Shown here: one piece after another, positions 15,286-15,840 of the stretch | Layout of the letters: the number at the start of each line of letters is the position of its first letter | Position numbering within the stretch: position 1 is the stretch's first letter | Source: Escherichia coli | GTDB taxonomy: Bacteria; Pseudomonadota; Gammaproteobacteria; Enterobacterales; Enterobacteriaceae | Length of the DNA: 64,000 nucleotides | Direction: 5' to 3' (one strand) | Assembly (NCBI RefSeq): GCF_003334315.1 | Contig: NZ_QOWR01000010.1 | Program-made: the position numbers and the translations under genes | Notes under the pieces: generated by a model | Told to the model about the DNA's origin: nothing | Seen by the model: only the letters and a program-made list of their open reading frames with translations | The model's database searches: none

Positions 15286-15399
15286 AAGAAAACATCCCCT
15301 GAGAGTTTAATTTTCGTCAAGATGCGTGGCGGACAATCCCCTGCCAGCGAAACGTTATCTTCCTGCTCCAGGTTTGCGACAATTTGCTGCGTCGCAAAA

Positions 15400-15415
15400 A
15401 AGCAAACGTTTAGCT
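15400..15415. promoter_or_regulatory. PurR-box-like operator upstream of ghxP/yjcD
   Basis: aagcaaacgtttagct matches the GCAAACGTTT core of the PUR box; a second partial copy aagcaaacgatta about 45 bp away and a third gcgcaaacgttatcg near 15541. Confidence 0.45.
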
Positions 15416-15699
15416 CCGCGCATACAAAACGGGTGGTAAAAAAAGCAAACGATTATCCGGCGATCATAGCGGCTTTTTCAACCGAAGTTTGCTGCTTTTT
15501 TCTCTTTTATTGTCTTGACGATGAAAAACCAGGCAATTGATGCGCAAACGTTATCGTCGGTGCGCAAGATTGCAGCGTTATCGAGCCGTATACCGTTCAG
15601 GATTGCGATAAAAAATCGTCTGAGATGACAAAAATATTGCGGTTAAAAAGTATACTTTTACACTGGCGAAGAAACGTCGGTGACATACAATTAAAGCAT

Positions 15700-15840
15700 C
15701 AACACCAACCGGAACCTCCACCACGTGCTCGAATGAGGTGTGTTGACGTCGGGGGAAACCCTCCTGTGTACCAGCGGGATAGAGAGAAAGACAAAGACCG
15801 GAAAACAAACTAAAGCGCCCTTGTGGCGCTTTAGTTTTGT
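15700..15840 (+). ncRNA. sraL: Candidate sRNA SraL (RyjA), tail-to-tail with soxR
   Basis: Placed from memory of the K-12 map (sRNA in the soxR-yjcD spacer, antisense to the soxR 3' end); supported here by a strong bidirectional terminator at 15812-15841; 5' end not determined. Confidence 0.45.

Follow-up and report, generated by a model that had tools for sequence, protein, structure and literature searches.

PurR boxes around the ghxP promoter, a conserved leader RNA, and the sraL gene in the ghxP–soxR intergenic region of Escherichia coli

The region between ghxP and soxR was analyzed in a 64,000-nucleotide (nt) stretch of Escherichia coli DNA from contig NZ_QOWR01000010.1 (assembly GCF_003334315.1), here called the window. 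The spacer itself (positions 15286 to 15830; 545 bp) corresponds to the soxS–soxR–ryjA–ghxP segment of strain K-12, which is inverted in the window, and it is present in 5,421 of 5,426 complete genomes, with 100% identity to many of them. On one side lies ghxP (yjcD; 13936 to 15285, minus strand), encoding a guanine/hypoxanthine transporter of 449 amino acids (aa), which was identified from the list of open reading frames (ORFs), a 100% E. coli match, the K-12 RefSeq annotation, and homologues named GhxP. On the other side are soxR (15831 to 16295, minus strand; 154 aa), assigned from the ORF list and annotation, and soxS (16381 to 16704, plus strand), assigned from the ORF list. The spacer contains two independent and already catalogued units, the PurR-repressed ghxP promoter and the small RNA (sRNA) gene sraL (ryjA). 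We describe three PurR boxes surrounding the ghxP promoter, through which PurR probably represses it, and a conserved structured RNA in the predicted ghxP leader. The locus is an ordinary and largely known one, and the new detail is modest.

The first-pass annotation of the window had pointed to three copies of a gcaaacg(t/a)tt core in the spacer. These are real and are the only matches to GCAAACGWTW in the 64 kb: the matches, at 15402 to 15411 (GCAAACGTTT; box 1), 15445 to 15454 (GCAAACGATT; box 2), and 15544 to 15553 (GCAAACGTTA; box 3), all lie inside the spacer and within 152 bp of each other. The number expected in the whole window is ~1.05, and three within 152 bp are far beyond chance. 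In a repeat search, boxes 1 and 2 had a common stretch with 16 of 17 identical nt (AAAAAAGCAAACGWTTA), and box 3 was the same as a fourth copy at 15350 to 15362 in 12 of 13 nt (AAACGTTATCKTC). That the repeats might be a chance or low-complexity feature without function could be argued from the fact that the motif was defined after being seen, and 9 of 100 shuffles gave at least three matches somewhere in the window. However, this explanation is already refuted by the clustering itself, by two of the boxes being the best PurR matrix sites in 64 kb (p near 3e-7), by the conservation of the boxes but not of the flanking DNA across genera, and by the published PurR binding detected with chromatin immunoprecipitation on microarrays (ChIP-chip).

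A PurR matrix was constructed from 27 ChIP-chip sites (PMC3159470 Table 1), with the site of this locus left out, and both strands of the window were scanned. The p values refer to a single 16-mer and a uniform-background matrix; the cutoff applied in PMC3159470 was p < 1e-4. All of the boxes were found on the minus strand. Box 1 (15400 to 15415; AGCTAAACGTTTGCTT) is a strong PurR operator and the best site in the window (19.2 bits; p = 2.4e-7), which agrees with the earlier recognition of the first core as a PurR operator match, and box 3 (15542 to 15557; ACGATAACGTTTGCGC) is a strong distal operator and the second best (18.5 bits; p = 3.4e-7). In the leave-one-out test the training sites scored 7.7 to 24.9 bits, with a median near 19, and both boxes fall within this range. 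The next-best site in the window reached 12.4 bits; the matches at 28840 to 28855, 58729 to 58744, 21122 to 21137, and 38038 to 38053 (11.4 to 12.4 bits) are at the background level. Box 2 (15443 to 15458; GGATAATCGTTTGCTT), a weak candidate PurR operator situated on the -10 hexamer described below, scored 10.5 bits and ranked 7 in the window; its score with the uniform-background matrix was 10.3 bits, and its p value of 3.3e-5 passes the cutoff. Boxes 1, 2, and 3 are each a 16-bp imperfect palindrome fitting ACGNAAACGTTTGCNT, with a central CG and the strong half-site CGTTTGC. A weak PUR-like motif, box 4 (15346 to 15361; AAGATAACGTTTCGCT), scored 7.0 bits (p = 1.4e-4). The matrix scoring proposed in the first-pass annotation thus bears out two of its three PUR-like boxes as strong operators, with 19.2 and 18.5 bits and with published purine regulation of ghxP, whereas the middle one is weak and sits on the -10 hexamer.

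Related loci totaling 790 kb contained 150 sites that reached 17 bits or more. About this number (~150) would come from ghxP boxes 1 and 3 by themselves, and the other sites of this strength that were identified were those of adeP and uacT only. In K-12, the adeP–yieH spacer (L101:2210-2257) contains a pair of PurR matrix sites located 32 bp apart (20.3 and 12.0 bits). A 19.0-bit site lies upstream of K-12 uacT (L100:7321-7336), and a 16.1-bit site was found inside the annotated ygfT coding sequence (CDS) (L100:6640-6655). Immediately upstream of K-12 ghxQ, no PurR matrix site belonging to this gene reached 9.5 bits.

PurR control of ghxP has been reported in several studies. A PurR ChIP-chip peak designated ryjA/yjcD was detected only with adenine (log2 ratio, 2.08; PMC3159470 Table 1), and it converts to approximately 15302 to 15932 of the window, i.e., the whole spacer. 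Adenine- and PurR-dependent repression of yjcD/ghxP was reported (PMC3809563, PMC8376909), and ghxP is a member of the PurR-1 iModulon (PMC6892915). Box 3 is the motif listed both for ryjA/yjcD (PMC3159470 Table 1) and for ghxP (PMC6892915 supplement), so that the published ChIP and iModulon motif is the third of the cores and not the first, strong though the first is. Box 1 corresponds to a site at -130 that is listed among the RegPrecise PurR regulon matches in a 2015 re-analysis (PMC4576408 supplement), and box 4 corresponds to a PurR site at -76 that was first predicted in that re-analysis (PMC4576408 Table 5). Consequently, PurR binding at this locus, purine repression of ghxP, boxes 1 and 3, and SraL are already known. 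Boxes 1 and 3 are listed together in none of the sources that could be read, and box 2 is mentioned in none of them. The present analysis reconciles three sources with different single ghxP sites, namely, box 3 (ChIP and iModulon), box 1 (2015 RegPrecise matches), and the -76 site (2015), the last of which is suggested to be a strand of an RNA structure rather than an operator.

A sigma-70 promoter of ghxP (15452 to 15481, minus strand) is predicted from a promoter scan and from conservation, with the -35 hexamer TTGAAA (15481 to 15476), an 18-bp spacer, and the -10 hexamer GATAAT (15457 to 15452). It was the only promoter-like site in a scan of 15200 to 15900. Both hexamers are invariant in the aligned loci, and the sequence between them varies in sequence but never in length. 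We infer that ghxP transcription starts near 15445, equivalent to K-12 position ~4,278,318. Relative to this predicted start, box 2 covers approximately -13 to +3, its left half being the -10 hexamer, box 1 covers +31 to +46, and box 3 is centered at approximately -104. The minus strand, inspected by eye and by the scan, contained no conserved -10/-35 pair at box 3 or ahead of box 1, and an additional promoter at either place was rejected. The ghxP Shine-Dalgarno sequence AGGGGA (15295 to 15300, minus strand) is located inside a CAGGGGA block that is invariant across an 18-sequence alignment.

The conservation of the boxes was assessed in a comparative scan with one genome per species, which used a pattern derived from sraL (and therefore blind to the PurR boxes) and yielded 98 loci. 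The synteny of ghxP, sraL, and soxR is kept throughout the Enterobacteriaceae in these loci. In the scan, the region upstream of ghxP was readable in 74 loci from more than 20 genera, and each of them carried boxes 1, 2, and 3, as did Salmonella. Among 52 representatives less than 90% identical, box 3 had a mean column identity of 0.99, box 2 one of 0.96, and the -35 block one of 0.90, compared with 0.63 for the -35/-10 spacer, 0.70 for the stretch from box 3 to the -35 region, and 0.43 for the upstream DNA. The 7 nt following the -10 hexamer (CGTTTGC) are nearly invariant and equal the strong PurR half-site in the correct register, suggesting that box 2 has a role beyond that of a -10 element.

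Another invariant element, the heptamer TTGCGCA (15561 to 15567, minus strand), was detected in the conservation profile and alignment directly before box 3, which contains a second copy 20 bp downstream of the first. The element follows a semi-conserved TGTTGC and falls short of a complete PurR site, and Erwinia lacks both it and box 3. In Shimwellia pseudoproteus (L010), box 2 is degenerate (GGATAATCGCTGGCTT) and a new PurR-like site of 19.5 bits is found 34 bp downstream of box 3, a pattern that suggests operator turnover.

All loci have boxes 2 and 3 at the same distance of 99 bp, and the DNA between them contains no indel. Boxes 1 and 2 are 43 to 46 bp apart in most loci, ~90 bp apart in Klebsiella and Raoultella, 145 bp apart in Pseudocitrobacter, and 205 bp apart in two other loci, and the distance from box 1 to the ATG ranges from 116 to 182 bp. 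Inserts of ~45, ~100, and ~160 nt, located between boxes 1 and 2 in the extreme 5' portion of the leader, were observed in L028, L054, L061, and L066 (Klebsiella, Raoultella), L019 and L092 (Pseudocitrobacter), and L094 and L095; the Klebsiella insert holds a CUCCCCC...GGGGGAG hairpin, and the boxes and the structured domain of the leader are intact despite the inserts. Two Erwinia species retain box 2 on the -10 hexamer and box 1 (17 to 20 bits), 44 to 45 bp apart, and lack box 3. The GATAATCGTTTGC part of box 2 persists both in Erwinia and in a more distant locus, in each case with at least one strong box downstream; the distant locus has AGATAATCGTTTGCC and two downstream boxes. As Erwinia has boxes 1 and 2 only, the core and downstream pair is the older one, and box 3 is an Enterobacteriaceae-specific addition made at a fixed distance.

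Such an arrangement could mean that the three boxes cooperate by DNA looping or phased contacts, similarly to the GalR operators OE and OI, with the strong flanking sites loading the weak core. The strong sites do flank the promoter and the weak site lies on it, the 99-bp distance is invariant in 75 aligned upstream regions and in Salmonella, and the ~83 bp between boxes 2 and 3 are free of indels although ~50 bp of them are only ~70% conserved. At the ~11 bp per turn reported for loops in vivo, 99 bp would make 9.0 turns. However, PurR has no tetramerization domain and is not known to loop DNA. The distance between boxes 1 and 2 shifts by 46, 101, and 161 bp in some genera with no consistent phase, that between boxes 1 and 3 likewise varies with no constant phase, and Erwinia lacks box 3 entirely. 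The fixed spacing could also reflect an unrecognized factor or an UP-element constraint. Altogether, we consider cooperation of this type unlikely.

A conserved structured domain, predicted to form a three-way junction, was identified in the ghxP 5' leader (15322 to 15423, minus strand) by applying RNAalifold to the aligned predicted 5' untranslated regions. Two alignments were used, one of 18 sequences (A1) and one of 44 sequences less than 95% identical (A2). The domain comprises a closing helix (AUGC/GCAU; 15423 to 15420 with 15325 to 15322), a long arm in which the RNA of box 1 pairs with that of box 4 and which ends in a hairpin (15396 to 15375), and a short side hairpin. In A2, 94.8% of the cells were paired and 12 pairs had changed on both sides. 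On all five measures, every one of 500 shuffles fell short of the alignment, and pairing in slid controls was 29 to 50% (A2; the pattern was the same for A1). Three of the four closing-helix pairs and all six hairpin pairs covary, and the wobble pairs fit the ghxP-sense strand only. The same architecture was obtained as the single-sequence minimum free energy fold in four of six species.

A covariance model of the leader gave exactly one match per ghxP locus, with scores of 85 to 136 bits except in Shimwellia, which had the lowest score (48.9 bits). The window scored 117.8 bits and Salmonella 109.8 bits, and the Erwinia matches were weak (14 to 20 bits). The model had no match upstream of ghxQ, xanQ, uacT, or adeP or elsewhere in the window. 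We were not able to identify any Rfam 15 match besides sraL at E <= 1 over 14800 to 16800; over 15280 to 15460 there were two chance-level matches (E, 4 to 8). A literature search for a ghxP/yjcD leader, a riboswitch, or a link to CsrA or an sRNA returned nothing relevant. The function of the leader is probably post-transcriptional.

The leader also bears on the status of boxes 1 and 4. Only the ACGTTT..GC part of box 4, which pairs with box 1, is conserved, and box 4 scores below 9 bits in most species. For these reasons, a 3' strand of the RNA helix is a better explanation of box 4 than the PurR site predicted in 2015. The variant TAATCG of box 1, found in four genera, is tolerated by PurR and breaks the RNA pair. 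Because these variants follow PurR tolerance and not RNA pairing, box 1 is probably constrained as an operator.

Several other candidate elements of the leader and spacer were tried and dismissed. (i) A leader ORF (ATG at 15423, 22 codons) has AAG, CAG, or ACA in place of the ATG in other genera, and the indels in it are not multiples of three; spacer ORFs of 62 to 88 aa were dismissed on the same grounds, i.e., a start that is not kept across genera and indels that are not multiples of three. (ii) A hairpin presenting the Shine-Dalgarno sequence (AAAAC/GUUUU) showed no significant covariation, with 84% of the cells paired and 25 to 202 of 500 shuffles doing equally well. (iii) An extended closing helix (AUGCGCGG/CCACGCAU) was not preferred, since the C of column 16 is opposite A in 40 of 44 sequences and the modeled partner G124 pairs with both C and U. 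In addition, the loop of the leader hairpin (window 15381 to 15390; L003, L013, L047, and others) is rich in CCCC(U) in almost all genera and in the other Escherichia species, and this loop is complementary to the invariant AGGGG of the Shine-Dalgarno sequence. In E. coli, the loop has changed to GCAGCAAAUU, and the Escherichia side hairpin carries a second CAGGGGAU, identical to the Shine-Dalgarno block. The Shine-Dalgarno sequence never varies, and covariation is therefore uninformative about a loop–Shine-Dalgarno interaction.

The second unit of the spacer is sraL (ryjA; 15698 to 15838, plus strand), which lies tail to tail with soxR. The covariance model RF01408 matched exactly this interval with 153.3 bits against a gathering score of 39, over model positions 1 to 142 of 142, and the match coincides exactly with the RefSeq noncoding RNA ryjA, whose 3' end overlaps that of soxR by 8 nt in K-12. 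The element annotated earlier as an sRNA candidate is SraL/RyjA itself, the E. coli member of the family, as judged from these matches. SraL binds Hfq according to the Rfam RF01408 family description, and in Salmonella it has been reported to be RpoS dependent and to repress tig (PMC3753932). A -10-like TACAAT (15686 to 15691), read by eye only, precedes sraL. A Rho-independent terminator hairpin with a 13-bp stem (15807 to 15837), seen in the terminator scan, the sequence, and the Rfam structure line, is common to sraL and, probably, soxR. The right arm of its stem contains the soxR stop codon (TAA at 15831 to 15833, minus strand), as had been noticed before. The bidirectionality claimed at the same time is only plausible, because the stem is flanked by a T run on the plus strand and by GTTTTCC on the minus strand, and the latter was not called a terminator by the scan.

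The convergent sraL–soxR overlap is kept in nearly all of the 98 loci, with one locus lacking a soxR match and one unrelated archaeal contig lacking both genes. Three contigs of the scan had unexpected labels. A Thermoproteota metagenome-assembled genome (MAG) contig (L048) matches the sraL search pattern without either gene, probably by chance. A contig from a MAG labeled Bacillota bacterium (L041) encodes proteins 100% identical to E. coli GhxP and SoxR, and a ghxP–sraL–soxR locus of enterobacterial type is present on one labeled Chryseobacterium sp. (L095); contamination or misbinning probably accounts for both.

In Salmonella, Erwinia, and most genera of the Enterobacteriaceae, a glutathione S-transferase (GST)-like gene of ~220 aa (PF02798, PF13417) is located on the ghxP strand between soxR/sraL and the ghxP promoter (L102:1486-2154, L103:1442-2104, and L104:1568-2230; compare window 15558 to 15697). 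The ghxP start is ~1,100 to 1,340 bp from the sraL core where this gene is present and 423 to 445 bp from it in Escherichia and the Citrobacter freundii group, from which the gene is absent. No remnant of it was found in the E. coli spacer by tblastn.

The ChIP label ryjA/yjcD would also allow box 3 to regulate sraL, and in E. coli box 3, on the opposite strand, does precede the sraL start by ~140 to 155 bp. However, in most genera the GST-like gene (220 aa) puts box 3 more than 800 bp from sraL, with box 3 still 99 bp from box 2, and the sraL promoter has been reported to be RpoS dependent, with no purine link (PMC3753932). We reject this assignment on synteny and regard it as highly improbable.

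In our view, the ghxP promoter is probably repressed by holo-PurR through multiple operators, the three boxes surrounding it, with a structured leader and an independent sraL unit alongside; the start site, the occupied boxes, and the role of each box are inferred, not observed. The substrates of GhxP are co-repressors of PurR, and the arrangement would therefore limit the import of co-repressor by negative feedback. Accumulating hypoxanthine or guanine would lead to occupation of the boxes by holo-PurR dimers. PurR at box 2 would keep RNA polymerase off the -10 region and the start site, and box 3 may serve as an auxiliary site that provides extra occupancy or loads the weak core box 2. PurR at box 1 could stop RNA polymerase during promoter escape or elongation, an effect published for purB and purR. 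The transcript would have a leader of ~160 nt, the central 100 nt of which would fold into the conserved three-way junction. PurR sites usually fall in the interval from -35 to -10, and at purB and purR elongation is blocked by PurR bound at a downstream site (PMC3159470).

Several points weigh against this interpretation. Box 2 is at the background level of the window, where ~4 equally good sites are expected in 64 kb, and its left half would be conserved regardless, being the -10 hexamer. Box 1 also forms one strand of the conserved RNA helix, which confounds the reading of its conservation. The ChIP-chip resolution of ~600 to 630 bp does not separate the occupancies of individual boxes. No experimental ghxP transcription start was found in the sources that could be read, and positions relative to +1 derive from the phylogenetic footprint. 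The stability of the leader fold is close to that of shuffled sequence (z from +0.1 to -2.6). PurR is a dimer that is not known to act cooperatively or to loop DNA, which makes the role given here to box 3, and any meaning of the 99-bp spacing, speculative.

Taken further, such points would leave box 3 as the only working operator, with box 2 kept as -10 hexamer plus initially transcribed sequence and box 1 kept as an RNA helix strand. Both genome-scale studies list box 3 alone, box 2 (10.5 bits) scores at the background level, and one base pair of the covariation-supported box 1:box 4 helix covaries (CG in 19, UA in 16, and UG in 9 sequences) without a single mismatch. However, box 1 outscores box 3 (19.2 versus 18.5 bits), also at positions outside the RNA-paired core, and the TAATCG form of box 1 in four genera is one that PurR tolerates but that breaks the RNA pair. 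Erwinia retains boxes 1 and 2 without box 3, which excludes box 3 as the sole ancestral operator, and the nearly invariant CGTTTGC that follows the -10 hexamer is the strong PurR half-site in the correct register. A single working operator at box 3 is thus quite improbable, and we favor repression through all three boxes.

The findings of the first-pass annotation, as originally stated, re-identify annotation of the textbook level (SraL and a PurR-regulated promoter of a purine transporter gene) and are of little consequence alone. What appears to be new is the weak operator overlapping the -10 hexamer, the joint occurrence of the sites and their deep conservation, the fixed 99-bp spacing, and the leader supported by covariation. 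Box 2 is a promoter-overlapping candidate for direct repression. The leader is a conserved structured RNA in a heavily studied genome that is outside Rfam and was not found in the literature searched. We suggest, tentatively, that it could be an undescribed cis-regulatory RNA of the Enterobacteriaceae in which box 1 is both operator and helix strand, adding a post-transcriptional layer that might involve a ligand, a protein, an sRNA, or mRNA stability; separately, and equally tentatively, the 99-bp spacing might mean that PurR at the distal box communicates with the core promoter. If the leader is regulatory, enterobacterial purine uptake would be controlled at two levels from overlapping sequence.

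Among known systems, the sRNA of the spacer shows no difference from SraL/RyjA (RF01408; Argaman 2001; Silva 2013, PMC3753932), with which it shares the full-length match, the soxR overlap, the terminator hairpin, and an identical K-12 gene. The ghxP boxes resemble the pur regulon operators (purF, purMN, purHD, xanP, and adeP/yieG) in the 16-bp palindrome ACGNAAACGTTTGCNT with its central CpG, in scores within the ChIP-validated range, in a site over the core promoter, in repression by hypoxanthine- or guanine-bound PurR, and in a purine transporter target. However, ghxP has three conserved sites instead of one, or of two as at adeP (20.3 and 12.0 bits), and its promoter site is weak, with two strong sites at approximately -104 and +38. 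The roadblock operators of purR and purB provide a parallel for box 1, which is likewise a high-scoring operator inside a transcribed leader (PMC3159470), and by analogy a roadblock may operate at ghxP. The difference is that box 1 is joined by a core and an upstream operator and doubles as an RNA helix strand.

GalR, a dimeric repressor of the LacI family, loops DNA between gal OE and OI together with HU. The ghxP operators likewise flank the promoter and belong to a dimeric LacI/GalR-family repressor, whereas PurR is not known to loop DNA, only the distance between boxes 2 and 3 is fixed, and box 3 is missing in Erwinia. Finally, the ghxP leader shares with the purine riboswitches and cis-leaders (RF00167, NMT1/xanthine motif) a conserved three-way-junction RNA in the 5' leader of a guanine/hypoxanthine permease gene. 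It differs from them in having no similarity to any Rfam model at E <= 10, unequal arms, few conserved unpaired nt beyond the PurR box sequence, and strong matches only in the Enterobacteriaceae, with weak ones in Erwinia.

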